Source: Escherichia phage vB_EcoP-CC1
Reading direction: 5' to 3' (one strand)
Length of the DNA stretch: 44,532 nt
Sequence record: OX457022
In this document: one piece after another, positions 7,486 to 43,705 of the stretch
Numbering within the stretch: the first letter of the stretch is position 1
How the letters are laid out: the number at the start of each line of letters is the position of its first letter
Made by a program: the position numbers and the translations under genes
Notes under the pieces: generated by a model
What the model was told of the DNA's origin: nothing
Database searches by the model: none
The model's input: only the letters and a program-made list of their open reading frames with translations

Positions 7486-8685
7486 ATGTCTACACCGAAC
7501 ACTCTGACTAACGTTGCTGTGTCCGCATCTGGTGAGGTTGACAGCCTTCTTATTGAGAAGTTTAATGGTAAGGTAAACGAGCAGTACCTGAAAGGTGAGA
7601 ACATTCTGTCCTACTTTGATGTACAGACGGTAACTGGTACTAACACGGTTAGCAATAAATATTTAGGTGAAACTGAGTTGCAGGTGTTAGCACCGGGTCA
7701 GTCACCTAATGCTACTCCAACTCAGGCCGATAAAAACCAGTTGGTAATTGATACCACTGTGATCGCCCGTAACACCGTGGCACACATCCACGACGTACAG
7801 GGTGACATCGACAGCCTTAAGCCTAAGTTGGCTATGAACCAAGCCAAGCAACTGAAGCGTCTGGAAGACCAGATGGCAATCCAGCAGATGCTGTTAGGTG
7901 GCATCGCTAACACCAAAGCAAAGCGTAACAAACCTCGTGTAAAAGGACACGGCTTCTCTATCAACGTTAACGTGACTGAAAGTGAAGCACTGGCTAACCC
8001 GCAGTATGTCATGGCTGCTGTAGAATATGCTCTGGAGCAGCAGCTTGAACAGGAAGTGGATATCTCTGATGTAGCGATCCTGATGCCGTGGAAATTCTTC
8101 AACTCGCTGCGTGACGCAGACCGCATTGTAGATAAGACTTACACTATTAGTCAGTCCGGTGCTACTATCAGTGGCTTTGTTCTGTCTTCCTACAACTGCC
8201 CTGTTATCCCGTCTAACCGATTCCCGACATTTGTACAGAGTGCTCCACATCACTTACTGTCTAACGAAGATAACGGTTATCGTTATGACCCTACCGCAGA
8301 GATGAACGGCGCTGTAGCTGTGCTGTTTACTGCTGATGCATTGCTGGTAGGTCGCACCATTGAAGTAACAGGTGACATCTTCTATGAGAAGAAAGAGAAG
8401 ACTTACTATATTGATACCTTCATGGCTGAAGGTGCAATCCCTGACCGCTGGGAGGCTGTGTCTGTAGTTACTACTAAACGTAATGCAGGTACTGGTGCGG
8501 CTGACGGTGCAGGCGACGATCACGCAACCGTACTGGCTCGTGCACAGCGTAAGGCTGTCTACGTCAAGACCGCAGGTGCTGCCGCATTATCCGCCGCTAG
8601 CCTGCAAGCAGAAGACTTAGTAGCCGCTGTACGTGCTGTAATGGCTAATGACGTCAAGCCGACTGCACTGAAACCTACTGAGTAA
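7486..8685 (+). CDS. major capsid protein
   Basis: 399 aa; own strong promoter and RBS, followed by terminator; canonical position after scaffold gene. Confidence 0.85.
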   Translation: MSTPNTLTNVAVSASGEVDSLLIEKFNGKVNEQYLKGENILSYFDVQTVTGTNTVSNKYLGETELQVLAPGQSPNATPTQADKNQLVIDTTVIARNTVAHIHDVQGDIDSLKPKLAMNQAKQLKRLEDQMAIQQMLLGGIANTKAKRNKPRVKGHGFSINVNVTESEALANPQYVMAAVEYALEQQLEQEVDISDVAILMPWKFFNSLRDADRIVDKTYTISQSGATISGFVLSSYNCPVIPSNRFPTFVQSAPHHLLSNEDNGYRYDPTAEMNGAVAVLFTADALLVGRTIEVTGDIFYEKKEKTYYIDTFMAEGAIPDRWEAVSVVTTKRNAGTGAADGAGDDHATVLARAQRKAVYVKTAGAAALSAASLQAEDLVAAVRAVMANDVKPTALKPTE

Positions 8686-8730: not shown

Positions 8731-8740
8731 AGGAGGGTTC

Positions 8741-9481
8741 ATGCCTTTAATTCAAAATACAAGTGATGTTGGACGTATCATGGCTGAGGCTTCCTTCAAT
8801 ATCATTGATAGCAAACTGGAAGCAGTTAACCTGTGTATGCGAGCTATCGGTCGTGAGGGTGTGGATTCCCTTGACTCTGGCGACTTAGATGCTGAAGATG
8901 CTAATAAGATTATTGATATTGTCTCACAACGTTTCCAGTACAATAAAGGTGGTGGTTGGTGGTTTAACAGGGAACCTAATTGGCTGCTTAAACCTGATAC
9001 CAACGGCGAAGTGAATATGCCAAACAATTGCCTTGCGGTACTCCAGTGTTACGCCCTAGGTGAACGTAAAGTACCTATGACTATACGAGCAGGCAAGTTG
9101 TATTCTGTTTGGAATCACACTTTCGACATGTCAAAGTATGTGAATCAGGATGGGCGTATTAGGTTGACTCTGGTAACATTACTACCTTTTGAGCATCTAC
9201 CTGCAAGTGTTATGCAAGCTATTGCCTATCAAGCTGCCGTAGAGTTTATTGTGTCTAAGGATGCTGATAAGACTAAGTTACAAGCACACCAGCAGATCGC
9301 AGCACAGCTTATGATTGATGTTCAGTCAGAGCAGTCTTCTCAGAAGAGACTCAATATGCTTGTACATAACCCTACTCAGCGCAACTTCGGAATCATGGCA
9401 GGTGGCTCACAGAATGTACCAGCATTCTCCTATTCCCCTTATGATACTTACCCTGTAAGGCCGTGGGAGGTTGATCGCTGA
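8741..9481 (+). CDS. tail tubular protein A
   Basis: 246 aa directly after capsid and before large tail tube gene; RBS AGGAGGG. Confidence 0.75.
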   Translation: MPLIQNTSDVGRIMAEASFNIIDSKLEAVNLCMRAIGREGVDSLDSGDLDAEDANKIIDIVSQRFQYNKGGGWWFNREPNWLLKPDTNGEVNMPNNCLAVLQCYALGERKVPMTIRAGKLYSVWNHTFDMSKYVNQDGRIRLTLVTLLPFEHLPASVMQAIAYQAAVEFIVSKDADKTKLQAHQQIAAQLMIDVQSEQSSQKRLNMLVHNPTQRNFGIMAGGSQNVPAFSYSPYDTYPVRPWEVDR

Positions 9482-12611: not shown

Positions 12612-15554
12612 ATGGCAATTGAACGTCAAGCTGTACAAGGACTAGAAAGAGTACAGTCAAGGGGCGCGCCAACACCTATGTCTTTCACACCACGACAAGT
12701 GAGTATCTCAGGGGGCGCGGATGCCTCCGGTAGTAGATTTTTGGAAGACTTAGTAAACGCTGCAAGTAGTGTGGCTGATGTCACTACTGCTATCCTTAAT
12801 CAGCAAGTAGAAGACGATAAGGTTCGCCAGATGGATAGGGCTTTATCTGGCATGATGCCTTCTGAGGATGCTACGGTAGGTGGTGCTCGTGCGCATATGC
12901 TGGTTAGTTTACAAAATGATGTAATCGCACAGACAACTGCGCTACAAGTAGAAGCACAGCGATTTCAAGGTAGTGACGAGGATTGGGAAAACTATGTAGT
13001 TCAATCTCGTAATGAGGTACAAAATAGGTTATGGCAAAGTTATCCAGAGCTTCGTGGTGACAAAGATTCTATGAGACTTGTCACTAACGCGTTCATGGAG
13101 CAGCAACCTAGAATTACTGCAACTAGAGCAGAGGCTAAACTTCGTCAAGAAGAAGAAGCACGAATGCAATCTATGCAGTCTCGTATTATCATGGCTACAC
13201 GGGACGTAGCGCCAGATGCCACTGGTGCAGCACTCATCCAGTTACAAAAAGAAGCACTGGCGATGGGTCTTAGTAAACCTGAGTTTGATCAGATGGTTGC
13301 TAAGATTGCATCTGACAGAGCGGCAGTAGGAGATGATAGTCTTATTCAGGGAACCAAAGCACTGGTGGATGATAAGGGTGTCTCTTTGTATGACCGTGTT
13401 GGTGCTTTGCAAACTGGAGAGATTCAAGCTAACAGAGCTTGGGCTGCGCAGAATCAGGTTGCCCTCTTTGAGAAGAAGGATGCAGCTATAAAGGCATTCG
13501 ATGCAGGGCAACTTACTCGTGAAGAGTTACTTCAGGTGATGCAGAATCACAATGAATTGACTGGTGGTACTGCTTGGTCTGATAGCGAGATCAAGGCTAT
13601 CTTCGATAGGCAAGCTAAGGCTAATGCAGAGAAAGCAAAGCTCGAAGATCTTATTGCACGAGGTGAATCTGGGTCGCCTTTAGGTTTACAGGATATTAGT
13701 AAGGATGACAGAAAATCCTATGCTGAAGCCTTAGTTAGTACCTACACTAAGTTGGCAGAAGATGAAATTGCCCGTACTGGTGCAACGGGAGAACAGGCTG
13801 AAGCTATTCGCGGTAGGTATGAGCAGATGCGTTATCTTAAATTAGGGCAACAACTTATTGAAGACCCAATCATTAAGGAAAGATATTCGTCGCTTATGCA
13901 ATTATCCTCTGCCAACCTTAAAGATATGAATGTTGAGCCTGAAGCATTACAGACCATCATGCGAGCGCGGGACTCTATTCCAGAGGATGCACGTCGTGCT
14001 GTCATGGGAGACAAAGAGTATGCCTTTGTAGAGAACTACGACCTAGCAACTCGCATGGGGTATAACGCAGGTCAAGCTATTGAGTTTGCACAGAATGCCT
14101 CTCGTGGAGAGAAGCTACAAGGTTCTGTACTTAAAGAACTGAATGATGATGTAGATGGAGTTGTAAGTGATGTGGCAGGAGGTAGTTGGCTTACTCGTGG
14201 CGATAATATGAGTGAGATGGGTCGTGACATTATGATGGAGGAGGCAAGTACAATTGCGAGAGCAATGAAGGTTGCAGGTCATAATAATGACACGATTAAA
14301 CGTCATCTTAAATCCTATTTGACGAGCCAGTATACACAGTTATCAGAGGGCTTCTTCACCCAAGGTGTTCTGGTGAAAGGTGATGTACGAACATTAGGTG
14401 ACACTATAGGAGTAAACCAGAATGACCTTCCTATGGCGCTACGTCAATATATGGATAACAACAAGCAAGCACTTCTTGATGCATCAGGTGGCTTAGAAGA
14501 GGGTGATTTGTATTTTGATGTAGATGCGCAGCGGGGACTCTTTACCATACGTGCAGGGTCTGGTCGTGTACCTGTTACGCAGGCAATGCCTTTGTCTGAA
14601 ATCAAAGGGCAGTCCTTGCTTAAGCAAAGATATGATGCAGAGGTTAAAGCCCGTGATGAGGGGCGTAAGAATTTTGAAGCACAGCAAATGAGGATGTGGG
14701 GCGCAGGTGGCTACCAAGCACAACCACCTGCAAAGACTACAGCCAAAACTGTAGGCTCCCGTGGGATTGCTGACTTCTTAATGTCACCTGCCTTTGCATC
14801 AGGCGAGAATCTACCAGCAAACTTTGAGTTTGGATATAAGAGGAATAATATGGACTTCTACAATTATGTAGCCAAGATGGAGAATAATGCCAATGTGGGC
14901 TTTGACCGAGTAGCTGGTGTTTATACACCATACAAAGATGCACATGGTCAATCTGTCGGGTACGGTCACTTCCTTACTACTGAAGAGAAGAAGAACGGAT
15001 ACATTATGATTGGTACAGAGAAAGTGCCATTCACTCCGGGACAATCTCAATTAACACCAGAACGAGCCATGCGCCTTCTACAGCAAGACTTGAAGAGTCA
15101 TGTGCCAAACACTTCAGGGTGGGCTGTTCCATTCGAAGAGATGCACCCAGGTGTTCAGCGTGGCCTTATGGACTTGTCCTATAATTTAGGCAAAGGAGGT
15201 ATCCAGAATGCACCTAAAGCCTATGTTGCGTTTAAGGCTGGCAAGTTTACTGATGGATTTATTGAGATGTTATCTACTGCATCTACTGAAGGTAAGCGTA
15301 GTACTGGGTTGTTGGTTCGTAGAGCAGAAGCATACAACCTTGCACAGAGTGGAGGTGCTATTCCTAAGATTAGTGAAGTAGAGACACGAGCCGATGGGTC
15401 TATGTATGTTAAGTTTGCAGGACAGATGTCAGAGGCTTTCGTAAATAAATCAATCTACAATCAGATTGGTAAGGATGGATGGCTGCAAGTGTACCCTCCA
15501 AAACAAGGTGTACTTGCACCTAACACCAAGATTGGTAGAATCAAACTAAGCTAG
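12612..15554 (+). CDS. internal virion protein with lysozyme-like (T4-lysozyme-type) domain
   Basis: 980 aa; residues ~760-900 contain YKDAHGQSVGYGHFLT, closely resembling T4 lysozyme YKDTEGYYTIGIGHLLT. Confidence 0.75.
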   Translation: MAIERQAVQGLERVQSRGAPTPMSFTPRQVSISGGADASGSRFLEDLVNAASSVADVTTAILNQQVEDDKVRQMDRALSGMMPSEDATVGGARAHMLVSLQNDVIAQTTALQVEAQRFQGSDEDWENYVVQSRNEVQNRLWQSYPELRGDKDSMRLVTNAFMEQQPRITATRAEAKLRQEEEARMQSMQSRIIMATRDVAPDATGAALIQLQKEALAMGLSKPEFDQMVAKIASDRAAVGDDSLIQGTKALVDDKGVSLYDRVGALQTGEIQANRAWAAQNQVALFEKKDAAIKAFDAGQLTREELLQVMQNHNELTGGTAWSDSEIKAIFDRQAKANAEKAKLEDLIARGESGSPLGLQDISKDDRKSYAEALVSTYTKLAEDEIARTGATGEQAEAIRGRYEQMRYLKLGQQLIEDPIIKERYSSLMQLSSANLKDMNVEPEALQTIMRARDSIPEDARRAVMGDKEYAFVENYDLATRMGYNAGQAIEFAQNASRGEKLQGSVLKELNDDVDGVVSDVAGGSWLTRGDNMSEMGRDIMMEEASTIARAMKVAGHNNDTIKRHLKSYLTSQYTQLSEGFFTQGVLVKGDVRTLGDTIGVNQNDLPMALRQYMDNNKQALLDASGGLEEGDLYFDVDAQRGLFTIRAGSGRVPVTQAMPLSEIKGQSLLKQRYDAEVKARDEGRKNFEAQQMRMWGAGGYQAQPPAKTTAKTVGSRGIADFLMSPAFASGENLPANFEFGYKRNNMDFYNYVAKMENNANVGFDRVAGVYTPYKDAHGQSVGYGHFLTTEEKKNGYIMIGTEKVPFTPGQSQLTPERAMRLLQQDLKSHVPNTSGWAVPFEEMHPGVQRGLMDLSYNLGKGGIQNAPKAYVAFKAGKFTDGFIEMLSTASTEGKRSTGLLVRRAEAYNLAQSGGAIPKISEVETRADGSMYVKFAGQMSEAFVNKSIYNQIGKDGWLQVYPPKQGVLAPNTKIGRIKLS
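14392..14413 (+). promoter_or_regulatory. promoter-like sequence inside coding region (CATTAGGTGACACTATAGGAG)
   Basis: Matches SP6-type consensus better than this phage's class I promoters; lies inside the 980-aa gene (codons GDTIGV); function unproven. Confidence 0.3.
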
Positions 15555-15570
15555 TGGTATACTCAAGGTT

Positions 15571-15588
15571 TGTCTCACATGTGAGACA
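15571..15588. repeat. 18-bp perfect palindrome TGTCTCACATGTGAGACA
   Basis: 16 nt after stop of 980-aa gene; member of palindrome family; flanked by AAGG...CCTT. Confidence 0.9.
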
Positions 15589-22508: not shown

Positions 22509-22702
22509 TGATAAACTCCGAACTGGTAGATAATGGTGTGAAGCTGGCGCCACCTGCATTAGTCTCAGGTGGGTACTTCCTCGGTATCAGTTGGGACAAT
22601 TTGGTACTGATAGCAACATTCATTTATACAGTGTTGCAGATTGGCGATTGGTTCTATACTAAATATACAATATGGAGGAATAAGCATGAGCGTGCACAAT
22701 AA
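22508..22702 (+). CDS. class II holin (T7 gp17.5-like)
   Basis: 64 aa; segment FIYTVLQIGDWFY resembles T7 holin YTVVQIGAKV; hydrophobic core plus basic C-terminus; RBS AAGGAGG. Confidence 0.7.
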   Translation: MINSELVDNGVKLAPPALVSGGYFLGISWDNLVLIATFIYTVLQIGDWFYTKYTIWRNKHERAQ

Positions 22703-22985
22703 ACATGCAGCCACAGAGGATGAAGTAGGCATCCTTCATGGCGCTATTACGAAGATGTTTAATAAGAAAGCACAGGCTATACTGGACACTATAGAAGAAG
22801 ACCCTGATTCTGCTATGCACTTAGTGTCAGGTAAGGATATTGGAGCCATGTGTAAGTGGGTTTTAGATAATGGCATTACTGCAACCCCTGCTGCACAGCA
22901 GGAAGAATCTAAGTTGTCTAAGCGTCTCAAGGCTATCCGAGAGGCGTCCAGTGGTAAGATCATTCAGTTTACTAAGGAGGATTAA
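22686..22985 (+). CDS. terminase small subunit (gp18-like)
   Basis: 99 aa from ATG 22686 (GGAGGA upstream); immediately precedes terminase large subunit. Confidence 0.55.
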   Translation: MSVHNKHAATEDEVGILHGAITKMFNKKAQAILDTIEEDPDSAMHLVSGKDIGAMCKWVLDNGITATPAAQQEESKLSKRLKAIREASSGKIIQFTKED

Positions 22986-32690: not shown

Positions 32691-35318
32691 ATGCAAGATC
32701 TACACGCTATTCAGCTTCAGCTTGAGGAAGAAATGTTTAACGGCGGTATTCGTCGCTTTGAAGCAGACCAACAACGCCAGATTGCATCAGGTAATGAATC
32801 CGATACGGCATGGAATCGTCGCCTGTTGTCGGAGCTTATCGCACCTATGGCGGAAGGTATTCAGGCTTATAAGGAAGCCTACGAAGGAAAGAAAGGACGC
32901 GCACCGCGTGCACTGGCCTTCATTAACTGCGTAGAGAACGAAGTGGCAGCATATATCACGATGAAGATCGTAATGGATATGCTTAACACAGATGTAACCT
33001 TGCAAGCCATAGCAATGAATGTAGCTGATCGCATCGAAGATCAAGTACGCTTCAGCAAGCTGGAAGGCCACGCCGCCAAATACTTTGAAAAAGTTAAGAA
33101 GTCACTCAAGGCAAGTAAGACTAAATCATATCGCCATGCGCACAACGTAGCGGTAGTGGCTGAGAAGTCAGTAGCTGACCGTGACACTGATTTCTCCCGC
33201 TGGGAGGCGTGGCCTAAAGATACCTTACTGCAAATCGGTATGACCTTGCTAGAAATACTGGAGAATAGCGTATTCTTCAATGGTCAACCTGTCTTCCTCC
33301 GCACCTTGCGCACTAATGGTGGCAAGCATGGTGTTTACTACTTACAGACCAGTGAGCACGTAGGGGAGTGGGTTACAGCATTTAAAGAACATGTAGCGCA
33401 ACTTAGTCCGGCCTATGCACCTTGCGTCATTCCTCCGCGCCCTTGGGTGTCCCCTTTTAATGGTGGGTTTCATACTGAGAAGGTGGCAAGTCGCATCCGT
33501 TTGGTAAAAGGCAACCGTGAGCACGTCCGTAAGCTGACCAAAAAGCAAATGCCAGCAGTTTATAAGGCTGTTAATGCTTTACAGGCCACTAAGTGGCAAG
33601 TTAACAAAGAAGTTTTGCAGGTAGTAGAAGACGTTATCCGTCTCGACCTTGGTTATGGTGTACCTTCCTTTAAACCACTCATCGACCGCGAGAACAAGCC
33701 GGCTAACCCAGTGCCGTTAGAATTTCAACACTTGCGAGGCCGCGAACTGAAGGAAATGTTAACGCCGGAACAATGGCAAGCCTTCATCAACTGGAAAGGT
33801 GAATGCACCAAGCTGTATACCGCTGAGACTAAGCGCGGAAGTAAGTCGGCGGCAACCGTTCGCATGGTAGGACAAGCGCGCAAATACAGCCAGTTTGATG
33901 CGATTTATTTCGTGTATGCACTGGATAGCCGCTCACGCGTTTATGCGCAATCTAGCACACTCTCACCGCAATCAAACGACCTAGGCAAGGCGTTACTGCG
34001 TTTTACCGAAGGGCAGCCGCTAAATAGCTCTGAGGCGCTTAAATGGTTTTTGGTGAACGGGGCGAATAACTGGGGTTGGGATAAGAAGACTTTCGACGTG
34101 CGCACCGCTAACGTACTGGACGGCGAGTTTCAAGATATGTGCCGCGACATTGCAGCGGATCCTCTGACCTTTACTCAATGGGTAAATGCCGATTCACCTT
34201 ATGGATTCCTTGCATGGTGCTTTGAGTATGCTCGTTATTTGGATGCACTGGATGAAGGAACACAAGATCAGTTTGTGACGCATTTACCTGTTCATCAAGA
34301 TGGTAGCTGTTCTGGCATCCAGCACTACAGTGCTATGCTACGCGACGAAGTGGGTGCGAAGGCGGTAAACCTTAAACCATCCGACTCGCCTCAAGATATT
34401 TATGGAGCGGTTGCGCAGGTTGTTATCCAGAAGAACTACGCCTACATGAATGCAGATGATACAGAAACTTTCACATCTGGAAGCGTAACACTTACAGGTG
34501 CAGAACTGCGCAGCATGGCTAACGCGTGGGATATGATTGGGATCACTCGCGGCTTAACCAAAAAGCCAGTAATGACCTTGCCATACGGCTCCACCCGCTT
34601 AACCTGCCGTGAATCGGTGATTGATTATATCGTTGATTTGGAAGAAAAAGAGGCGCAGAGAGCTGTTGCCGAAGGGCGGACGGCTAATCCTGTGCACCCT
34701 TTTGATAATGACCGTAAAGACTATCTGACACCTGGTGCAGCTTACAACTATATGACCGCTTTAATTTGGCCTTCTATCTCTGAGGTTGTTAAAGCGCCTA
34801 TAGTGGCGATGAAAATGATTCGCCAGCTTGCACGATTCGCAGCTAAAAGAAACGAAGGGTTAGAGTACACCTTACCCACTGGTTTCATCTTGCAGCAAAA
34901 GATAATGGCTACCGACATGCTACGCGTATCCACTTGCTTGATGGGTGAAATCAAGATGAGTCTACAGATTGAGACTGATGTAGTGGATGAAACGGCAATG
35001 ATGGGCGCTGCCGCTCCTAACTTTGTTCACGGTCATGATGCGAGTCACCTTATTCTGACTGTATGTGACCTAGTTGACAAAGGTATTACATCAATTGCAG
35101 TTATTCATGACTCTTTCGGAACTCATGCAGGCCGTACATCAGATCTTCGTGATAGCTTAAGGGCAGAAATGGTTAAGATGTATCAAGGGCGTAACGCCTT
35201 GCAGCAATTGCTGGATGAGCATGAAGAACGTTGGTTGGTGGACACTGGCATTCAAGTGCCGGAACAAGGGGAGTTTAACCTTGAAGAGATATTAGTTTCT
35301 GACTATTGTTTTGCATAA
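32691..35318 (+). CDS. single-subunit DNA-directed RNA polymerase (SP6-type)
   Basis: 875 aa; N-terminus [32 protein letters not shown] and C-terminus ending DYCFA agree with recalled SP6 RNAP; AGGAG RBS. Confidence 0.95.
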
Positions 35319-35325
35319 TATTGAT

Positions 35326-35357
35326 AGGCCATTCCTTAGGGAGTGGCCTTTTCTTTT
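35326..35357 (+). terminator. intrinsic (rho-independent-type) terminator after RNAP gene
   Basis: Stem AGGCCATTCC/GGAGTGGCCT (one G-U), loop TTAG, then TTTTCTTTT; candidate early terminator. Confidence 0.7.
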
Positions 35358-35391
35358 ACCTATTACCTGTAACATTTAATTAACATAACCG

Positions 35392-35409
35392 TGTCTCACG
35401 CGTGAGACT
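35392..35409. repeat. palindrome family member TGTCTCAC-GC-GTGAGACT
   Basis: Perfect 16-bp palindrome GTCTCACGCGTGAGAC; 2 nt upstream of promoter at 35411. Confidence 0.85.
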
Positions 35410-35410
35410 T

Positions 35411-35432
35411 ATTTACCGGACACTATAGGATA
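35411..35432 (+). promoter_or_regulatory. phage RNAP promoter class I (ATTTACCGGACACTATAGGAT), +1 G at 35428
   Basis: Family consensus with C at -11. Confidence 0.8.
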
Positions 35433-35463
35433 ACCGTCGGAGACGGAAAGAGAAGGGAAGATA

Positions 35464-35513
35464 AGGATATAAAGGAAGTAATAGGTATTAAAGGTTGTAT
35501 AGGTTTACCTAGG
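35464..35513. repeat. periodic AGG array (AGG at 35464, 35473, 35483, 35492, 35501, 35511)
   Basis: Six AT-rich (T)A(A)AGG units at 9-10 bp period between two promoters downstream of RNAP gene; candidate replication origin. Confidence 0.8.
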
Positions 35514-35572
35514 AATACTTATTACCTTCTTCCTTCCTCTTCTTACTACCTAGAGGAAGGGCAGACCTAGGT

Positions 35573-35590
35573 TGTCTCACATGTGAGACT
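35573..35590. repeat. palindrome family member TGTCTCAC-AT-GTGAGACT
   Basis: 4 nt upstream of promoter-like sequence at 35595. Confidence 0.85.
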
Positions 35591-35594
35591 TCGT

Positions 35595-35616
35595 ATTTAC
35601 CGGACAGTATAGATAA
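35595..35616 (+). promoter_or_regulatory. variant phage promoter (ATTTACCGGACAGTATAGATAAG), +1 G at 35612
   Basis: C to G change at -5 relative to family consensus; directly upstream of gp1.1-like gene. Confidence 0.45.
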
Positions 35617-35642
35617 GACTAACTTACTTTGGAGATTTAACC

Positions 35643-35771
35643 ATGCGTAACTTTGAGAAGATGACCCGTAAAGCTAACCGTTTTGACATGGAAGAAGGGC
35701 AGACGAGAGGCAAGAAGCTGAATAAACCTGTCCGTGACCGTGCATCTAAACGAGCAGCGTGGGAGTCCTAA
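35643..35771 (+). CDS. T7 gp1.1-like small basic protein
   Basis: 42 aa MRNFEKMTRKANRF...GKKLNKPVRDRASKRAAWES matches recalled T7 gene 1.1 MRNFEKMTKRSNRN...GRKLNKTKRDRSHKRSWEGQ; GGAGA RBS. Confidence 0.6.
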   Translation: MRNFEKMTRKANRFDMEEGQTRGKKLNKPVRDRASKRAAWES

Positions 35772-35774
35772 GTT

Positions 35775-37763
35775 ATGGCTATTATTCAGAACGTACCGTG
35801 CCCTGCCTGCCAAAAGAATGGACACGATAAATCCGGCAACCATCTTATGATATTTGAGGATGGCGCTGGTTACTGTAACCGTGGTCATTTCCATGATAAT
35901 GGCAAACCTTATTACCATAAGCCAGAGGGCGGCATCGAGATAACCGAATTGCCCATTACTGGCAATATCAAATACACACCTTCTCAATTCAAAGAAATGG
36001 AGAAGGAAGGGAAGATAAGCGACCCTAAGCTACGCGCCATCGCACTTGGTGGTATGCGTATGAAAGACCGTTGGGAGGTCATGAATGAGCAAGAAAGGGC
36101 AGACCAAGAAGCAGAGTGGAAACTTGATGTTGAATGGTTCCTCACGCTTAAGCGTAAGAACCTTGTTTCCCGACACATTCGCGGCGACATTTGCGCATTG
36201 TATGATGTACGTGTCGGACACGATGAAGAGGGTAGAGTCTCGCGGCATTACTATCCACGCTTCGAGAAAGGTGAGCTAGTAGGAGCTAAGTGTCGCACAT
36301 TACCTAAAGACTTTAAGTTTGGTCATTTAGGTAAACTCTTTGGTATGCAAGATCTTTTCGGGATGAATACTTTGTCTCACGTGTTAGACAAGGGAAGACG
36401 AAAGGATTGCTTGCTTATTGTTGGTGGGGAACTGGATGCGCTAGCAGCGCAGCAGATGCTCCTTGATTCTGCCAAGGGTACTAAGTGGGAAGGTCAACCT
36501 TACCATGTATGGTCTGTTAACAAAGGGGAGTCTTGCCTTGAAGAGATTGTGCAGAACCGTGAACACATCGCCCAATTCAAGAAGATTATTTGGGGCTTCG
36601 ATGGGGATGAGGTAGGGCAGAAGCAGAACCAGCAAGCGGCTCGCCTGTTCCCTGGCAAATCTTATATCCTTGAATACCCCTCTGGTTGCAAAGATGCCAA
36701 CAAGGCATTGATGGCTGGTAAAGCCAAAGAATTTGTGGATGCTTGGTTTAATGCAAAGTCATCTGATGAAGTCTTTGGTAGCCAGATTAAATCTATCGCA
36801 TCTCAAAGGGATAAGCTCAAGGCTGCACGTCCAGAACAAGGGCTGTCATGGCCTTGGCCTAAGCTAAACAAGGTAACACTGGGTATCCGTAAGAACCAGC
36901 TTATCATTATAGGTGCAGGCTCTGGTGTTGGTAAGACAGAGTTCCTCCGTGAAGTGGTAAAGCATCTCATCGAAGAACACGGTGAATCTGTAGGTATCAT
37001 TTCTACAGAAGACCCGATGGTCAAAGTGTCCCGTGCTTTTATCGGTAAGTGGATTGATAAGCGTATTGAACTACCGCCAACCAATGACCCGAAAGAAGAT
37101 GGCTACCGTGAGGTGTTCGACTATACAGAGGAAGAGGCTAATGCTGCCATTGATTATGTAGCTGATACAGGGAAGCTGTTTGTAGCTGACCTAGAGGGTG
37201 ACTATTCGATGGAGAAGGTAGAGCAAACTTGCCTAGAGTTTGAGGCTATGGGTATTTCTAATATCATCATTGATAACTTAACGGGGATTAAATTAGATGA
37301 GCGTGCTTTTGGTGGGAAGGTTGGTGCACTTGATGAATGCGTCAAACGAATTGGTACTATCAAAGACCGACATGCGGTTACGATTTTCCTTGTCTCTCAC
37401 CTTACACGCCCTCCGGCAAACCGTACCCAACACGAAGAAGGTGGCGAAGTTATCCTTTCTGACTTCCGAGGCTCAGGCGCTATCGGATTCTGGGCATCTT
37501 ACGCCTTGGGGATTGAGCGTAATACAAGAGCTGAAACGCTTGATGAACGGACTACCACGTACATCTCATGTGTCAAAGACCGCGACCAAGGTATCTACAC
37601 TGGAACCAAGGTCATGCTTAAGGGTGACATTCAAACCGGACGTTTAATGGAACCACAAGCCCGTACTAAGTCATTTGATACAGGTGAAGCAAGGCAACAA
37701 GAAGTACCTGATTTACCGGACACTATAGAAGAGACAACCTTTGACGATGAACAGGAGTTTTGA
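35775..37763 (+). CDS. DNA primase/helicase (T7 gp4-like)
   Basis: N-terminal zinc-binding CPACQKNG...GYCNRGHFHD, central primase-type region, helicase Walker A GAGSGVGKT; acidic C-terminus DDEQEF. Confidence 0.9.
   Translation: MAIIQNVPCPACQKNGHDKSGNHLMIFEDGAGYCNRGHFHDNGKPYYHKPEGGIEITELPITGNIKYTPSQFKEMEKEGKISDPKLRAIALGGMRMKDRWEVMNEQERADQEAEWKLDVEWFLTLKRKNLVSRHIRGDICALYDVRVGHDEEGRVSRHYYPRFEKGELVGAKCRTLPKDFKFGHLGKLFGMQDLFGMNTLSHVLDKGRRKDCLLIVGGELDALAAQQMLLDSAKGTKWEGQPYHVWSVNKGESCLEEIVQNREHIAQFKKIIWGFDGDEVGQKQNQQAARLFPGKSYILEYPSGCKDANKALMAGKAKEFVDAWFNAKSSDEVFGSQIKSIASQRDKLKAARPEQGLSWPWPKLNKVTLGIRKNQLIIIGAGSGVGKTEFLREVVKHLIEEHGESVGIISTEDPMVKVSRAFIGKWIDKRIELPPTNDPKEDGYREVFDYTEEEANAAIDYVADTGKLFVADLEGDYSMEKVEQTCLEFEAMGISNIIIDNLTGIKLDERAFGGKVGALDECVKRIGTIKDRHAVTIFLVSHLTRPPANRTQHEEGGEVILSDFRGSGAIGFWASYALGIERNTRAETLDERTTTYISCVKDRDQGIYTGTKVMLKGDIQTGRLMEPQARTKSFDTGEARQQEVPDLPDTIEETTFDDEQEF
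37711..37732 (+). promoter_or_regulatory. phage RNAP promoter class I embedded in primase/helicase 3' end (ATTTACCGGACACTATAGAAGAG), +1 G at 37728
   Basis: Exact consensus inside coding sequence (encodes DLPDTIEET). Confidence 0.7.
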
Positions 37764-37924
37764 TGGAAATTATTAAACCATTATTAAATATCGGCGTTGA
37801 CATCCTATTCATGCTTATGCTAGCAAACTATGCTGCACGATATGGATTCAAGCCAGCTGTGAAACTTATCGTTGCATCTGGTTTTCTTATGTCAATGTTC
37901 TTTATTGTAACACACCTTATCTAG
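37763..37924 (+). CDS. hypothetical small hydrophobic protein (53 aa)
   Basis: Below ORF-track cutoff; TGATG overlap with primase stop; two predicted hydrophobic segments. Confidence 0.35.
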   Translation: MEIIKPLLNIGVDILFMLMLANYAARYGFKPAVKLIVASGFLMSMFFIVTHLI

Positions 37925-37940
37925 TGTATTTATCAGGGCT

Positions 37941-37958
37941 TGTCTCACATGTGAGACA
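37941..37958. repeat. 18-bp perfect palindrome TGTCTCACATGTGAGACA
   Basis: 17 nt after stop of small ORF; identical to copy at 15571. Confidence 0.9.
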
Positions 37959-37996
37959 GGCTCTTATTAAGTACATTAAATAACTGGAGATTGATT

Positions 37997-38719
37997 ATGT
38001 ATAAATTAGTATTGAATGCAGGTGATTATGTTCGTAACATCAATGAAGCCTCACGTCGTTATCGTTGCCGTGGTGTGGTTAGCTATGTAAGTGAGAACAT
38101 GTACCATGTGGAGTACAGCAACGGCATTAAACAATCTTATCATAAGAAGTTAGCACATAACTACCTTGAGAAGATTGGCGAGACAAGCAATCAATGCAAG
38201 TGTGTACATGATGAGGTTTGCGATAAGTGCAAACGTCAGGCAATTAAAGCCTTTACCTTTGCGCAACGTTATGGTTCTATGTATGGTGCTGGTCACAAGA
38301 CCGTTGCAGAAGCAGCTTGGAAGACATTACAGTTTGAGCATTCAAATGGACGACGCACCACAATTAAGAAAGAGCGCCGCAATGTCATCACTGGTAAGAC
38401 TCAAAGTGAGATGATTAAGCAATGTGGCACTGCATTAGGTGTTACACAGTTCAATACACGTGCTCTAGGTAAATCTACAGGACAAGCTATGTTTAAGATT
38501 GGTGAAGCCATGATGCACCCAAATGTACCTGTGCGAATCATGGATGTTGACCATGCAATCACAGAACATGGTACAACACGGCGTGTAGTTAATAATCATT
38601 TTGCCGACACTATAGAAGATATTATCCGTAAGCAAGGATTGAAAGGTCTTCACATCTTAAATGGTGAAGAGTTGCTGTACCTTCCTATTGTTACCGAAGA
38701 AACCTACGTGAATATCTAA
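37997..38719 (+). CDS. hypothetical protein (240 aa) with Cys cluster
   Basis: GGAGA RBS 6 nt upstream of ATG 37997; CKCVHDEVCDKC cluster; between primase and DNA polymerase. Confidence 0.55.
   Translation: MYKLVLNAGDYVRNINEASRRYRCRGVVSYVSENMYHVEYSNGIKQSYHKKLAHNYLEKIGETSNQCKCVHDEVCDKCKRQAIKAFTFAQRYGSMYGAGHKTVAEAAWKTLQFEHSNGRRTTIKKERRNVITGKTQSEMIKQCGTALGVTQFNTRALGKSTGQAMFKIGEAMMHPNVPVRIMDVDHAITEHGTTRRVVNNHFADTIEDIIRKQGLKGLHILNGEELLYLPIVTEETYVNI
38588..38609 (+). promoter_or_regulatory. weak promoter-like sequence inside coding region (ATTTTGCCGACACTATAGAAG)
   Basis: Core CACTATAGAAG intact but 3 mismatches at -13, -12, -10; probably non-functional. Confidence 0.2.
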
Positions 38720-38729
38720 GGAGTTAATC

Positions 38730-38918
38730 ATGACTAAAGTATTGATTTATATGAGAGGTGCTAATAAATGCTATGCAGTTGTAGCACCTGATGGGGTCAA
38801 GCCTTACGGTACTTCAAAAGGATTAGCATTAATAGGTGCTAGTCGCAGTGCAAGTTTCCAAATGGAACTTTTTGGTCATTGGACTGAAAAAAAGAATTCC
38901 GTGAAGAGTTTAATGTAA
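38730..38918 (+). CDS. hypothetical protein (62 aa)
   Basis: AAGGAG RBS 7 nt upstream. Confidence 0.5.
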   Translation: MTKVLIYMRGANKCYAVVAPDGVKPYGTSKGLALIGASRSASFQMELFGHWTEKKNSVKSLM

Positions 38919-38939
38919 TTGGCAGCTTTATGGTGAAAC

Positions 38940-39137
38940 ATGCAAAATAAACATAGCCTTAAGATGTTTGATGGTCACGAAGACCTGCAAGCACAAATTA
39001 CCAACCAAGCCTTCCTGTTTGCACAGTTAACTATGGCTGAAGCAAAGAAGAACAGCCTTACTCGTGAGCAGATTATCAAGGAAGGTAGCCGTGGTGCTAC
39101 TCGTCGTACCAAGAACCACAGAAGTGGTGCTCGCTAG
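38940..39137 (+). CDS. hypothetical protein (65 aa)
   Basis: ORF only; weak RBS. Confidence 0.35.
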   Translation: MQNKHSLKMFDGHEDLQAQITNQAFLFAQLTMAEAKKNSLTREQIIKEGSRGATRRTKNHRSGAR

Positions 39138-39153
39138 TCGATAAGTCAAGGGT

Positions 39154-39171
39154 TGTCTCACGTGTGAGACA
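39154..39171. repeat. palindrome family member TGTCTCAC-GT-GTGAGACA
   Basis: 17 nt after preceding stop; flanked by AAGGG...CCTTT. Confidence 0.9.
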
Positions 39172-39201
39172 GCCTTTCATCATATTGATTGGAGGTGCAT
39201 T

Positions 39202-39309
39202 ATGCCACGTGATTATGATTCTGATTGGGACTACTATGACTCAATGAATCCAAAACCCGAACGTTCAGATGATTACTACGAAACAGAGGCAATGTATGAA
39301 AACTATTGA
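39202..39309 (+). CDS. hypothetical small acidic protein (35 aa)
   Basis: Below ORF-track cutoff; GGAGGTG RBS; Asp/Tyr-rich; overlaps DNA polymerase start. Confidence 0.4.
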   Translation: MPRDYDSDWDYYDSMNPKPERSDDYYETEAMYENY

Positions 39310-41842
39310 TTGGAAGAAGGAAGCAGAAGGCCGCATCCTCGTCATGGACGCAGAAGCTAAAGGTCTGCTTGATGCTATCCGCTACGGTCATCGTGAAGAT
39401 GTACACATCATTTGCTGCATGGACTTGCTCACCACTGAGGAGTTCCTCTTCTTCGACCCATATGAGATGCGTGACCCTGAAGCAAGAGAACGCCTGAAGG
39501 AGTGGGAAGGCCATCAAGATGGTGACTTGGTTGACGGTGTTAACTTCCTGAAACACTGTGAAGCTATCGTGTCACAGAACTTCCTAGGGTATGACGGCCT
39601 CCTTTTTGAGAAAGCCTTCCCTGATATCTGGAAAGGTTTTAACTATACCGAAAGGCGCGGCAAGGGCAGACTCCGTGCCGACCTGTGTCCTGTGCGAGTC
39701 ATGGACACGCTGGTGATGAGCCGCCTGTTAAACCCCGATAGACGCCTTCCTCCGCAAGCATATGCCAAAGGTATGGGTAACGTCGCCCCTCATTCAATTG
39801 AGGCGCACGGCATCCGTATAGGACGCTATAAGCCGGAGAATGAGGACTGGTCTAAACTAACTGACCACATGGTTCACCGTGTCCGCGAGGACGTGGCAAT
39901 CGGTCGTGACCTTTTCCTGTGGCTGTACAATGGAGAGTGGACGGAGCATAAACGCCGTGGCGTGAATAAACGCACTGGCCTAGGCATTGAGACAGCCTTC
40001 CACATGGAGTCTATTGTGGCGCTGGAGATGAGCCGTCAGGCAGAGCGTGGATTCCGTCTGGATATTGACAAAGCACTAGCGCGATGCGAAGAACTGGACG
40101 CTAAGATTGATGAGACAGTCGCAGCGTTCCGCCCTCACATGCCTATGCGTATCAAGTCTAAACCTTTTAAACCGGAAGAAAAGAATGAAGTATGCCAACG
40201 CGCAAATGAGTATGGAGCTAGCAACAATATACCTACTGTCCTTGACCCCTCACACTTTCTTCATGCCGAGAGACGAGGAGATCGCAAGACAGTATGGAGT
40301 GTCACTACTAAGTCTGGTGATTGGTCGGCTAGCGTCAAGAAAGACTTTCCTCACCTTAGAGGAAACCGTAATGACACGCCAAGCATCAAGTGGATTGGCG
40401 CTTACTCGCCTGTTACTTTCGAAGAGATTCCCTTGGGTAACAGGGATACAGTTAAGCAAGTGCTCTATGATTATGGATGGAAAGGTGTTGAATTTAACGA
40501 TACCGAGCAAGCGCATCTCGATGAGCATGGCGTATTACCCAAACCTTGGAGTGGAAAGATAAATGAGAAATCCCTTACTTTATGGCAAGAAAGAGCCGCA
40601 CGTGAAGGTAAAACAGTACCAGATTGGTGCTTGGGTATCGCTGCATGGTACATACTCGTATCCCGTCGTGGTCAGATCCTCAACCGTGGTGACGTTGAAG
40701 CCTTCGATCAGAAGGGGGCGTGGCCTTCGCAAGCTGGTGTACGAAAGTGTCGCGGCCTTATACCTGTAGCCTTTAACAAGGAATTAGGAATCAATGCGCA
40801 ACAATACTACGAGAGGTATGGGTATTGGCCTACGTCTGACAAGGATGACGGAGAGTGGCGTGTGCCAGCTATTGCTATTAGTATTGGCACTTCTACGTTC
40901 CGTATGCGTCATCGCAATGTGGTTAATATTCCTGCCCGTGGCTTGTATCCTTTACGTGATTTATTCATAGCAGGTAAAGGTAAGCTAATCCTTGGTTGTG
41001 ATGGTGCAGGTCTTGAACTACGTGTACTTTCTCACTTCATGAATGACCCTGAGTACCAAGATATTGTACTGCATGGCGATATACATACTCATAACCAGAT
41101 GAAGGCGGGTCTTCCTAAGCGTGATATGGCGAAGACATTTATATATGCCTTCCTTTACGGCTCTGGTATAGCTAACCTTGCAGCAGTGTGCGGTGTTACT
41201 GAGGAAGAAATGAAGGAAGTTGTGGCAAGATTCGAGATTGAATTACCATCCCTTGCACGTCTTCGTGAGAATGTTATCGCACAAGGCAACAAGTTTGGAT
41301 ACTTACAAGCACCTGACGGGCATTGGGGTCGCATCCGTATGTCTGGTGGAGAACTTAAAGAGCACACTATGCTTAATGTATTACTCCAAATGACTGGCTC
41401 TTTGTGTATGAAATACGCATTGGTCAAAGCGTTTGCAGTGATGCGCAAGGAAGGTGTGGCCTTAGATAGTATGGGACACCCTTGTGGTGTAGCTAACGTG
41501 CACGATGAAATCCAGATGGAAGTACCTGAAGAAGAGGTATTGTATCTTAACTACGACCTACCTTTCACCTTAGAGGGGTTTGAAACAGAGAAGGCTGCTG
41601 TGAAAGCAGTATTCGATGCAGAGGAGAAACGTGTTCATGTGGATTCTGAAGGACGTATGTGGTCTGCTGCAAATCTCATTAGTGTTGATGCTGCTGCTGG
41701 TGTACTTCATTGCCAGCGTCGTTATCACCGCGCAGGGCATATCATTGCCGACGCCATGACTTGGGCTGGTCAGTATCTGAAGATGCGTTGCCCGATGGCA
41801 GGCGAGTATAAGATTGGCGCAAGCTGGAAGGAAACGCACTAG
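39296..41842 (+). CDS. DNA polymerase (family A, T7 gp5-like)
   Basis: 848 aa from ATG 39296 (ORF track 39269); polymerase-type motifs incl. HDEIQMEV; position after primase-helicase. Confidence 0.9.
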   Translation: MKTIDWKKEAEGRILVMDAEAKGLLDAIRYGHREDVHIICCMDLLTTEEFLFFDPYEMRDPEARERLKEWEGHQDGDLVDGVNFLKHCEAIVSQNFLGYDGLLFEKAFPDIWKGFNYTERRGKGRLRADLCPVRVMDTLVMSRLLNPDRRLPPQAYAKGMGNVAPHSIEAHGIRIGRYKPENEDWSKLTDHMVHRVREDVAIGRDLFLWLYNGEWTEHKRRGVNKRTGLGIETAFHMESIVALEMSRQAERGFRLDIDKALARCEELDAKIDETVAAFRPHMPMRIKSKPFKPEEKNEVCQRANEYGASNNIPTVLDPSHFLHAERRGDRKTVWSVTTKSGDWSASVKKDFPHLRGNRNDTPSIKWIGAYSPVTFEEIPLGNRDTVKQVLYDYGWKGVEFNDTEQAHLDEHGVLPKPWSGKINEKSLTLWQERAAREGKTVPDWCLGIAAWYILVSRRGQILNRGDVEAFDQKGAWPSQAGVRKCRGLIPVAFNKELGINAQQYYERYGYWPTSDKDDGEWRVPAIAISIGTSTFRMRHRNVVNIPARGLYPLRDLFIAGKGKLILGCDGAGLELRVLSHFMNDPEYQDIVLHGDIHTHNQMKAGLPKRDMAKTFIYAFLYGSGIANLAAVCGVTEEEMKEVVARFEIELPSLARLRENVIAQGNKFGYLQAPDGHWGRIRMSGGELKEHTMLNVLLQMTGSLCMKYALVKAFAVMRKEGVALDSMGHPCGVANVHDEIQMEVPEEEVLYLNYDLPFTLEGFETEKAAVKAVFDAEEKRVHVDSEGRMWSAANLISVDAAAGVLHCQRRYHRAGHIIADAMTWAGQYLKMRCPMAGEYKIGASWKETH

Positions 41843-43689: not shown

Positions 43690-43705
43690 GTCTCACATGT
43701 GAGAC
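43690..43705. repeat. palindrome family member GTCTCAC-AT-GTGAGAC
   Basis: Starts 2 nt after preceding stop; 15 nt upstream of promoter 43721. Confidence 0.85.

Follow-up and report, generated by a model that had tools for sequence, protein, structure and literature searches.

Does the promoter-like sequence within the final codons of the primase/helicase gene of Escherichia phage vB_EcoP-CC1 serve as a promoter, and does the promoter or the protein determine the sequence that they share? The window (record OX457022, the whole 44,532-nucleotide stretch analyzed here) belongs to a Vectrevirus of the SP6/K1-5/K1E group. The first-pass annotation had assigned a full-strength promoter to positions 37711–37732, inside the last 17 codons of this gene. 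Translation put the start of codon 646 at 37710, in agreement with that placement, and the codons GAT TTA CCG GAC ACT ATA GAA GAG encode DLPDTIEE (D646–E653). The site, its plus strand and its frame were confirmed, while its end had been set one base short of +6 (37733). From its sequence and from comparison with relatives, the site functions as a promoter of the phage's own single-subunit RNA polymerase (RNAP) with a probability of about 0.88.

The full 23-mer of the embedded site is ATTTACCGGACACTATAGAAGAG, one mismatch from the genome's own repeated consensus. With up to three mismatches allowed, the 23-mer matched the window 7 times vs. 0.00 expected. Moreover, GACACTATA was found 13 times, always on the plus strand, vs. 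0.42 expected. A scoring matrix was built from the eight intergenic promoters of the window, which themselves score 32.1–38.7 bits. With this matrix the embedded site scored 35.1 bits and ranked sixth of 14 same-strand promoter-like sites, all of which are on the coding strand. The matrix maxima were 9.0 bits for the minus strand and 17.8 bits for 30 shuffles of the window. Because the counts exceed expectation and 35.1 bits is above the shuffle maximum, a chance match is excluded. The score supports the view that the predicted promoter is, by sequence, as good as the intergenic ones; "full-strength" is read from this similarity alone. The embedded site has C at -11, a base that it shares only with the two promoters that closely follow the RNAP gene (Table 1). 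A host sigma-70 promoter was rejected, as no sigma-70-like site (-35/-10 hexamers with 16–18 bp spacing) was found at 37700–37740, a region poorer in such sites than its shuffles. An Rfam search of the whole window matched no family. Given the peptide DLPDTIEE and the codon usage of the window, the probability of the exact codon string was ~1e-4. Codon rarity was dropped as a stand-alone argument because ATA, with 15% of the Ile codons of this phage, is insufficiently rare.

Table 1. Features of the window discussed in the text
Feature	Position	Strand	Details
SP6-type promoter-like site in internal-virion-protein gene (ORF 12612–15554)	14392–14414	+	TLGDTIG; 15.8 bits
Fourth embedded promoter-like site (ORF 22641–22985)	22777–22799	+	ILDTIEE; 28.8 bits; same frame
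Single-subunit RNAP gene	32691–35318	+	Pfam RNA_pol 2e-89, RPOL_N 3e-31; specificity loop of 16 residues located
Intergenic promoter, -11C subclass	35411–35433	+	ATTTACCGGACACTATA followed by GGATAA; by matrix score
Intergenic promoter-like site, -11C subclass	35595–35617	+	ATTTACCGGACAGTATA followed by GATAAG; by matrix score
Primase/helicase gene	35775–37763	+	T7 gp4 homologue, 662 aa; codons 646–653 (37710–37733) coincide with the promoter
Acidic C-terminal tail of helicase, last 17 codons	37710–37760	+	DLPDTIEETTFDDEQEF; ends in Phe; past the part alignable with T7 gp4
Predicted phage RNAP promoter, -17 to +6	37711–37733	+	ATTTACCGGACACTATA followed by GAAGAG; predicted +1 is G 37728
Ribosome-binding site of gene 9.5	37751–37755	+	AGGAG, within the Q-E codons of the helicase; ATG of gene 9.5 at 37763, 7 nt downstream
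Gene 9.5	37763–37924	+	53 aa, hydrophobic; ATG overlaps helicase TGA; first gene on the transcript predicted from the embedded promoter
Hairpin between gene 9.5 and gene 10	37935–37964	+	13-bp stem, loop CATG, palindrome GTCTCACATGTGAGAC; -25.8 kcal/mol
Weak promoter-like site in gene 10 (ORF 37997–38719)	38598–38620	+	ATTTTGCCGACACTATA followed by GAAGAT; HFADTIED; 19.5 bits
DNA polymerase gene	39269–41842		Downstream of the embedded promoter

The primase/helicase matched the T7 gp4 structures PDB 5ikn and 6n7i over residues 164–607 (E ~1e-23). It also matched Pfam DnaB_C (5e-15), and its Toprim_2 score of 21.4 bits was just below the 22.1-bit cut-off. The polypeptide ends in VPDLPDTIEETTFDDEQEF, and its last 25 residues include 10 D/E and only one K/R. 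Its terminal residue is Phe, and most relatives end in either Phe or Tyr. Similar to this tail, that of T7 gp4 (EEESHSESTDWSNDTDF) is short, acidic, Phe-ending and located beyond the helicase domain, although the two cannot be aligned in sequence and the T7 tail overlaps no promoter. The contact of the T7 gp4 tail with the DNA polymerase is electrostatic. The tail attaches to basic patches of gp5, and processivity drops from 17 kb to ~5 kb when the tail is removed; such binding of a tail to the phage DNA polymerase is known for T7 only (PMC12593628). By analogy, the embedded promoter may be tolerated in the window phage because the segment lies in a flexible acidic C-terminal tail, for which an open frame, net acidity and a final Phe/Tyr appear to suffice.

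Comparison with relatives gave the strongest evidence. Matrices trained only outside the helicase gene were applied to 12 relatives that represent eight promoter-specificity types. In 11 of them the helicase gene contained one match of 24–38 bits, with a runner-up of no more than 3.6 bits, and the +1 of the embedded promoter was 24–48 nt before the helicase stop in each of the 11. The promoter types were ACYGGACACTATAG, AGGTGACACTATAG, AGAGACCACTATAG, AGGGCGGACTATAG, AGGGGCTACTATAG, A(C/G)TGGCGAGTATAG, TGTGTTGCACTATAG, and AACCACCCAGTATAG. The tail peptides by promoter type were DLPDTIEE, ELGDTIEE, ELETTIEE, DLGRTIEQ, EIGATIEQ, PIVAGIEE, DMCCTIED, and ELPPSIEE; together with further metagenomic types, there are at least nine. 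The RNAP specificity loop was distinct for each of the eight types, and the embedded copy followed it in 11 of the 12 genomes. For instance, the helicases of relatives L018 and L030 share 97.3% of their amino acids, and the change from ELGD to DMCC is the sole run of four adjacent differences between them, covering exactly -14 to -7 of the promoter. Our comparison of these sequences showed that with each change of RNAP specificity the predicted embedded copy was changed too, rewriting three to five tail residues of the helicase. Given that these residues would be written by promoter specificity, each switch of specificity would therefore leave a scar in the helicase, such as that from ELGD to DMCC.

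The codons point in the same direction. Among nine helicase genes, only 14% of the columns with an invariant amino acid also kept an invariant codon (86% varied), and just two stretches of three consecutive invariant codons were found, one of them ACT ATA GAA (T650 I651 E652). This cross-type test was used in place of a within-genus test of synonymous sites, which was underpowered. Across 13 Vectrevirus helicase ends, 2 of 8 third positions varied in the promoter segment vs. 49% elsewhere, a difference that was not significant; third-position pi was 0.054 vs. 0.168, in the expected direction in an underpowered test, and the segment was at the 12th–28th percentile of 8-codon windows. The first-pass annotation had suggested comparing the segment across relatives, and the peptide indeed follows each phage's promoter. 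Its claim of a dual constraint is clear for the nucleotides. The constraint is lopsided, however, because the residues over the specificity bases vary freely between relatives (P/G/E/R/A/V/C). The promoter sequence dictates the tail peptide; on the protein side, little more seems to be required than an uninterrupted frame and a flexible, acidic tail with a final Phe/Tyr.

The embedded copy was lost from one relative (L022), in which the tail and the downstream gene are both different and a near-consensus promoter is found 450 nt downstream, at 9211. Possibly weakening changes were T at -7 in K1-5 and A at -10 in L007 and L010. The embedded sites of L027, L032 and L034 scored below all intergenic promoters of their own genomes, and the site reads TACAG in L069-type contigs and TCTAG in L073. 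In relatives with 35–50% helicase identity, the promoter is at or just past the stop codon. It directly follows the helicase stop in Vibrio phage Vc1 and metagenomic relatives and is 30 nt past it in contig L091. In Pseudomonas phage Alpheus a hairpin overlapping the stop comes before the promoter at this boundary. De novo motif searches of the distant loci L071 (10 kb) and L072/L033 found no clear promoter family, and L072/L033 gave only hairpins or tandem repeats. These comparisons showed that SP6-like phages have retained a predicted promoter at the downstream boundary of the primase/helicase gene and that the ORF reads through it in the SP6/K1-5 subfamily. On balance we favor a broader history, in which a phage RNAP promoter, often accompanied by a palindromic hairpin, has occupied this boundary in the entire SP6-like lineage. 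Within the SP6/K1-5 subfamily, and also in certain environmental relatives, the helicase ORF would have been extended across the promoter, so that three to five replisome-contacting tail residues came to be written by RNAP specificity. If so, any new promoter specificity must be encodable in the helicase frame without a stop.

If it acts like T7 and SP6 RNAP, the polymerase would bind duplex DNA from -17 to -5, with its specificity loop reading approximately -12 to -7, melt the TATA segment and start at the predicted +1 to yield 5'-GAAGAGACAACC... The leader would be the 35 nt that end the helicase ORF and would carry the ribosome-binding site of gene 9.5. This gene is annotated as gp9.5 in the K1E and CC2 records, and a Pfam search with its product returned no match. 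Among 13 Vectrevirus genomes, this AGGAG is confined to the 6 with gene 9.5, and the remaining genomes have AGT GAG. The transcript is predicted to cross the hairpin, which is labelled a putative terminator in the record of phage R4596, to enter gene 10 and to extend toward the DNA polymerase gene. The promoter would therefore contribute additional transcription of the genes that follow the helicase gene. The site very probably works, as far as its sequence tells, as a conserved middle-gene promoter that feeds genes 9.5 and 10 through the DNA polymerase gene.

Other readings of the site were weighed. The match could be a by-product of protein constraint, in which a polymerase-binding tail needs a DTIEE-like motif and no transcription starts. 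TIE does recur in many tails, the tail of the window phage resembles that of T7 gp4 in being acidic, and the site at 14392, whose TLGDTIG is conserved with SP6 gp36, looks like such a case. However, the residues over the specificity bases are unconserved (LPD, LGD, LET, LGR, IGA, IVA, MCC, LPP) and track each genome's promoter, and the codons ACT ATA GAA are invariant where most conserved columns vary in codon. Moreover, phages with GTATAG or GCATAG promoter cores have GIE, SIE or NID instead. A by-product is thus the least probable of the alternatives. A decaying remnant, that is, a once-intergenic promoter engulfed by extension of the ORF and now neutral, is hardly more credible. It would account for the weakened copies in L027, L032, L034, L069 and L073, the loss in L022 and the lack of significance in the within-genus test, but a remnant would neither be re-matched to new RNAP specificities in eight types nor keep a near-top score in the window genome.

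The promoter might also act mainly in replication, as a transcription-primed origin, or a point of re-initiation, located between the genes for the helicase and the DNA polymerase and similar to T7 phi1.1A/B. The T7 primary origin needs a phage promoter and then an AT-rich stretch, and gene 9.5 opens with 30 nt of ~80% A+T. This stretch, however, belongs to gene 9.5 and is missing from 7 of the 13 Vectrevirus genomes; no other origin mark was found. A mainly replicative role is unlikely, if slightly less so than the two readings above, and it would be compatible with ordinary promoter function.

Promoter-like sequences are embedded in other genes of the window as well. The first-pass annotation had listed weaker cores at 38588 and 14392 as like cases. 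The latter position was correct and the former was off by 10 bases (38598–38620). Both are embedded, but they are unequal: the site in gene 10 scored 19.5 bits, whereas the one at 14392 scored 15.8 bits and has SP6-type specificity bases, unlike those of the Vectrevirus type. The site at 14392 is probably a passenger, as its gene appears to have come from an SP6-like phage. GAC ACT ATA is in frame as D-T-I at the main site and at both of these. The tripeptide, which was said to be forced in all three, is shared yet only partly forced, as a third of the possible frames, read as CTA TAG, contains a stop and leaves two. The site at 22777–22799 was absent from the first-pass annotation.

A phage promoter inside a gene is of a textbook kind, as exemplified by T7 phi4c in gene 4, and the predicted embedded promoter is an ordinary feature in this respect. 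What the sequences of relatives add is that the promoter sequence decides amino acids of the helicase; we know of no earlier description of a helicase tail written by RNAP specificity. The current understanding of phage transcription is unchanged. Taken as a series, the relatives offer a clean example from nature of a regulatory element that overrides protein sequence in an overlap. The tail peptide is predictable from each phage's promoter and could provide a quick read-out of RNAP specificity in new SP6-like genomes, and the tail segment is marked as mutation-tolerant and usable in engineering. Promoter features are missing from the annotations of the window genome and of its close relatives, and the site merits a place on the transcription map. 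No promoter features were found in the GenBank records of K1E, R4596, SP6, K1-5, ACG-C91, and CC2, and a full-text literature search outside the SP6 and K1-5 genome papers found no paper giving promoter positions for SP6, K1-5 or K1E. The 2004 genome papers of SP6 and K1-5 reportedly list phage promoters.

Among the closest known systems are Salmonella phage SP6 and Escherichia phage K1-5. The window helicase is 92% identical to that of SP6 and ~98% identical to those of the K1E group. Orthologous sites with the core ACTATAGAAGAG are found at the same last-codon position and in the same frame in SP6 (AY288927: 8411–8433, gene 10, DNA primase/helicase) and K1-5 (AY370674: 8320–8342, gp9). Different from the window phage, the SP6 site has its own specificity bases, AATTAGGTGACACTATA, and encodes ELGDTIEE, while the T at -7 of the K1-5 site is a synonymous change from GAC to GAT. 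T7, a member of another subfamily (Studiervirinae), has promoters of the TAATACGACTCACTATAG consensus type, which differs from that of the window phage. Its class II promoters phi4c and phi4.3 likewise serve a single-subunit RNAP, lie within the primase/helicase gene or at its end, and feed genes toward the DNA polymerase. phi4.3 is 76 nt after gene 4. phi4c is wholly inside the gene 4 coding sequence (QSDSLKREI), 594 nt before the stop and in the helicase domain, whereas the site of the window phage is in the tail.

The region from 35300 to 39300 was 100% identical to that of Escherichia phage vB_EcoP-CC2 (OX638290.1), of whose genome the window is a circular permutation, and 91–97% identical to those of K1E, the K1-5 group and other Vectrevirus genomes. 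Vectrevirus belongs to the SP6-like subfamily Molineuxvirinae of the Autographiviridae. Every large ORF of the window is on the plus strand. Fourteen promoter-like sites were found, and this motif family is far beyond chance: the motif with up to three mismatches matched seven times (0 expected), and GACACTATA occurred in 13 copies, all on the plus strand (0.42 expected). With a scoring matrix built from eight clearly intergenic sites (32.1–38.7 bits), the top minus-strand match scored 9.0 bits and the highest score among 30 shuffles was 17.8 bits.

Features of the window and scores of promoter-like sites embedded in coding sequences
Feature	Position	Strand	Bits	Details
RNA polymerase (RNAP) gene, single-subunit	32691-35318	+		Pfam RNA_pol 2e-89
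T7 gp4-like primase/helicase gene	35775-37763	+		PDB 5ikn/6n7i E ~1e-23; DnaB_C
DNA polymerase-sized ORF	39269-41842	+		ORF size
Promoter in helicase gene	37711-37733	+	35.1	ATTTACCGGACACTATAGAAGAG; predicted start G 37728; rank 6/14
Promoter-like site in ORF 22641-22985	22777-22799	+	28.8	CTATACTGGACACTATA then GAAGAA; peptide ILDTIEE
Site in gene 10	38598	+	19.5	peptide HFADTIED; common to K1-5
Site in internal-virion-protein gene	14392-14414	+	15.8	TTAGGTGACACTATAGG; SP6-type bases TTAGGTG; peptide TLGDTIG
AGGAG	37751-37755	+		7 nt 5' of gene 9.5 ATG
Hairpin	37935-37964			-25.8 kcal/mol
Hairpin core	15573-15586
Hairpin core	35394-35407
Hairpin core	35575-35588
Hairpin core	37943-37956
Hairpin core	39156-39169
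Hairpin core	43691-43704

The promoter at 37711 occupies codons 646–653 of the 662 helicase codons, which bears out its placement by the first-pass annotation within the last 17. From promoter to stop, the helicase frame reads GAT TTA CCG GAC ACT ATA GAA GAG ACA ACC TTT GAC GAT GAA CAG GAG TTT TGA, giving the C-terminal peptide DLPDTIEETTFDDEQEF. The observation is confirmed, and its interpretation as a genuine promoter, with a strength predicted from sequence, is supported: the site is of consensus grade and on the correct strand, with the cognate RNAP gene upstream. GAC ACT ATA is in frame at all four embedded sites, and the Asp-Thr-Ile said earlier to be forced at the main site and two weaker cores is encoded at each. 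Since CTA TAG puts a stop in one of the three frames, two are usable; the common frame is only mildly notable. Of the two weaker cores that had been described as embedded in the same way, 14392 was correctly placed but the other had been put at 38588, 10 bases off. Both are in frame but not equivalent to the main site.

SP6 carries AATTAGGTGACACTATAGAAGAG at 8411–8433 within primase/helicase gene 10 and K1-5 carries ATTTACCGGATACTATAGAAGAG at 8320–8342 within gp9; the 37711 site is the orthologue of both. Comparison loci were fetched from viral contigs (29) and metagenomes (54). For each of 12 genomes, the helicase gene was scanned with a matrix whose training sites all lay elsewhere in that genome. 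Exactly one strong match was found in 11 of them (24.1–37.6 bits; next best ≤3.6 bits), with the +1 consistently 24–48 nt upstream of the helicase stop. The scanned genomes represented eight specificity types, and the encoded tail follows each, L032 and L034 sharing one promoter type.

Embedded promoters and encoded helicase tails (L-numbers are loci from viral or metagenomic contigs)
Source	Embedded site	Tail
Window	ATTTACCGGACACTATA	DLPDTIEE
SP6	AATTAGGTGACACTATA	ELGDTIEE
L023	AATTAGAGACCACTATA	ELETTIEE
L024	ACTTAGGGCGGACTATA	DLGRTIEQ
L025	AAATAGGGGCTACTATA	EIGATIEQ
L027	CAATAGTGGCGGGTATA	PIVAGIEE
L030	ATATGTGTTGCACTATA	DMCCTIED
L032	AATTACCACCCAGCATA	ELPPSIEE
L034	AGTTACCACCCAATATA	ELPPNIDE

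Between types, the specificity-loop segment of the RNAP (T7 residues 739–770 in the alignment) varies as well. The sharpest case of co-variation is the pair L018 and L030, whose helicases share 97.3% identity and differ at 18 residues. Four neighbouring residues differ in one place only, where ELGD (647–650) is replaced by DMCC; this stretch corresponds exactly to promoter positions -14 to -7, at which the consensus sequences of the two phages diverge. In the RNAP loops of the pair, IK is replaced by VF. Additional types came from metagenomic contigs, where this position encodes, for example, ENSATIEE (AGAATAGTGCCACTATA, L078) and ELPPAIEE (L055). These comparisons show a conserved position with compensatory change across specificity types.

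The proposed dual constraint on this segment stood for the DNA, where constraint mostly lies, but little was found on the protein side. Given the peptide DLPDTIEE and the codon usage of the window, the exact codon string has a P of ~1e-4. In the suggested comparison of codon usage and amino acids across relatives (nine helicase genes, seven types), only 64 of the 452 columns whose degenerate amino acid was invariant (14%) also kept a single codon, and ACT ATA GAA at residues 650–652 was among just two three-codon invariant runs. The within-genus third-position test of 13 Vectrevirus sequences had the same direction but was not significant (2 of 8 positions variable versus 49% elsewhere; 12th–28th percentile). 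T at -7 in K1-5 and A at -10 in L007 and L010 are synonymous, and G at +5 in L010 changes E to G.

As T7/SP6 RNAP biochemistry suggests, RNAP would bind positions -17 to -5, melt TATA and start at G 37728, and the end of the helicase ORF would form a 35-nt leader containing the AGGAG. Gene 9.5 (37763–37924) encodes a hydrophobic product of 53 aa, and its ATG at 37763 overlaps the helicase TGA. The ribosome-binding site and start codon of gene 9.5 are in the last helicase codons, and thus both fall, together with the promoter, within this stretch of the tail. Gene 9.5 is present in 6 of 13 Vectrevirus genomes, which read CAG GAG TTT TRA TG here; the seven lacking it read AGT GAG TTC TGA with a hairpin directly after. 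The transcript would then cross the stable hairpin at 37935 and gene 10 toward the DNA polymerase gene.

Alignment of the helicase to the T7 gp4 helicase domain stops at residue 607, and the overlap would be tolerated because it lies beyond this part, in an acidic tail. This tail ends in Phe, like the T7 gp4 tail, which attaches electrostatically to basic patches on gp5 (PMC12593628). By analogy, such a tail should favour charge and a terminal aromatic residue over exact sequence. The promoter start region, GAAGAG or GAAGAA, encodes Glu-Glu.

The other embedded sites differ in distribution. The 22777 site, missing from the first-pass list, has Vectrevirus-type bases and is common to K1-5 and absent from SP6 (ILAAVEE); it is plausibly a clade-specific weak promoter. 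At the place homologous to 38598, SP6-type phages have TATTACGTGACACTATAGG, which L030 retains despite having promoters of another type; L023, L024, L025 and L027 have no such site, and this site tracks specificity poorly and is weak here. The host gene of 14392 (12612–15554) shares 81% amino acid identity with SP6 gp36 versus 43% with its K1-5 homologue, which lacks the site. These features suggest mosaic exchange between genera, and the 14392 site most plausibly came along as a passenger when the gene was imported.

In distant relatives, the promoter is at the same gene boundary, outside the ORF or barely overlapping it: immediately 3' of the helicase stop in Vibrio phage Vc1 and metagenomic relatives, 30 nt 3' of it in contig L091, and 3' of a hairpin across the stop in Pseudomonas phage Alpheus. 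In the annotated T7 reference record, phi4.3 is 76 nt past gene 4 and phi4c within gene 4. In the environmental contigs L069 and L078 (~57% helicase identity), the tail coding sequence contains both the promoter and a palindromic hairpin, and L069-type contigs have a TACAG core. L022, similar to L092 and L016, lacks an embedded promoter (0.4 bits) and has another tail (EEGEVTGADETQEF) and another gene downstream, with ATTTAGGTGACACTATAGGT, a near-consensus promoter, 450 nt downstream at 9211. Thus, the embedded copy is replaceable, but this lineage still has a promoter between the genes for helicase and DNA polymerase. The lineage (L022 locus: IMGVR_UViG_2706795336_000001, 8734–9230) has SP6-type promoters, and the different ORF downstream is of 160 aa.

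In L082 (metagenome contig Ga0075011_10006457, 1228–1290), the promoter TATAG is in the frame reading TAG; the helicase ends in DKDKSPL and the usual tail EETDSEDFG is in another frame, reflecting either a genuine truncation or an assembly error of 1 nt. The SP6 helicase (L003/L017, AY288927, 8440–8457) is annotated to end in QEFNG and its close relatives in QEF; the two versions are separated by a single T within a TTTT run, which could reflect sequencing or a genuine frameshift at the very C-terminus. In L033/L072, a distant relative (helicase 55% identical), units resembling CCTGGTTGT are repeated in a long tandem array at ~1400–1700.

The palindromic hairpin core TCTCAC-NN-GTGAGA occurs in six copies versus 0.04 expected by chance, and three are 3–16 nt 5' of promoters 35411, 35595 and 43721. 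Relatives have equivalent hairpins with other stems (TTGTCCAACGTGTTGGACAA, GTCTACAACTGTAGAC, GTTTCACAGTGTGAAAC, GTCTAACACTGTTAGAC), and in three of them (L069, L072, L078) the hairpin lies within the helicase tail coding sequence. No Rfam family matched the element, which may act as a terminator, a processing site or a stabiliser of 3' ends. At -11, the embedded promoter carries C in 13 of 13 Vectrevirus genomes (ACCGG; ACCAG in two), as do the two promoters upstream of gene 8 (35411, 35595) in the 12 with usual spacing (ACCGG; ACCTG in three); L010 differs in its upstream arrangement. Later promoters (7414, 24882, 27234, 42027, 42490 and 43721 in the window) have T (ACTGG) in every case. The -11 C sites form a conserved promoter subclass, which recalls the division of T7 promoters into class II and class III.

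The 37711-type site was unannotated in all six GenBank records inspected, and the SP6 and K1-5 promoters were reportedly catalogued in the 2004 genome papers. Possibly new is a positionally fixed promoter that rewrites the helicase tail at each change of RNAP specificity. This pattern implies no new mechanism; it illustrates evolution neatly and can help annotation. In T7-group genomes, phage-RNAP promoters that overlap coding sequence are textbook knowledge.
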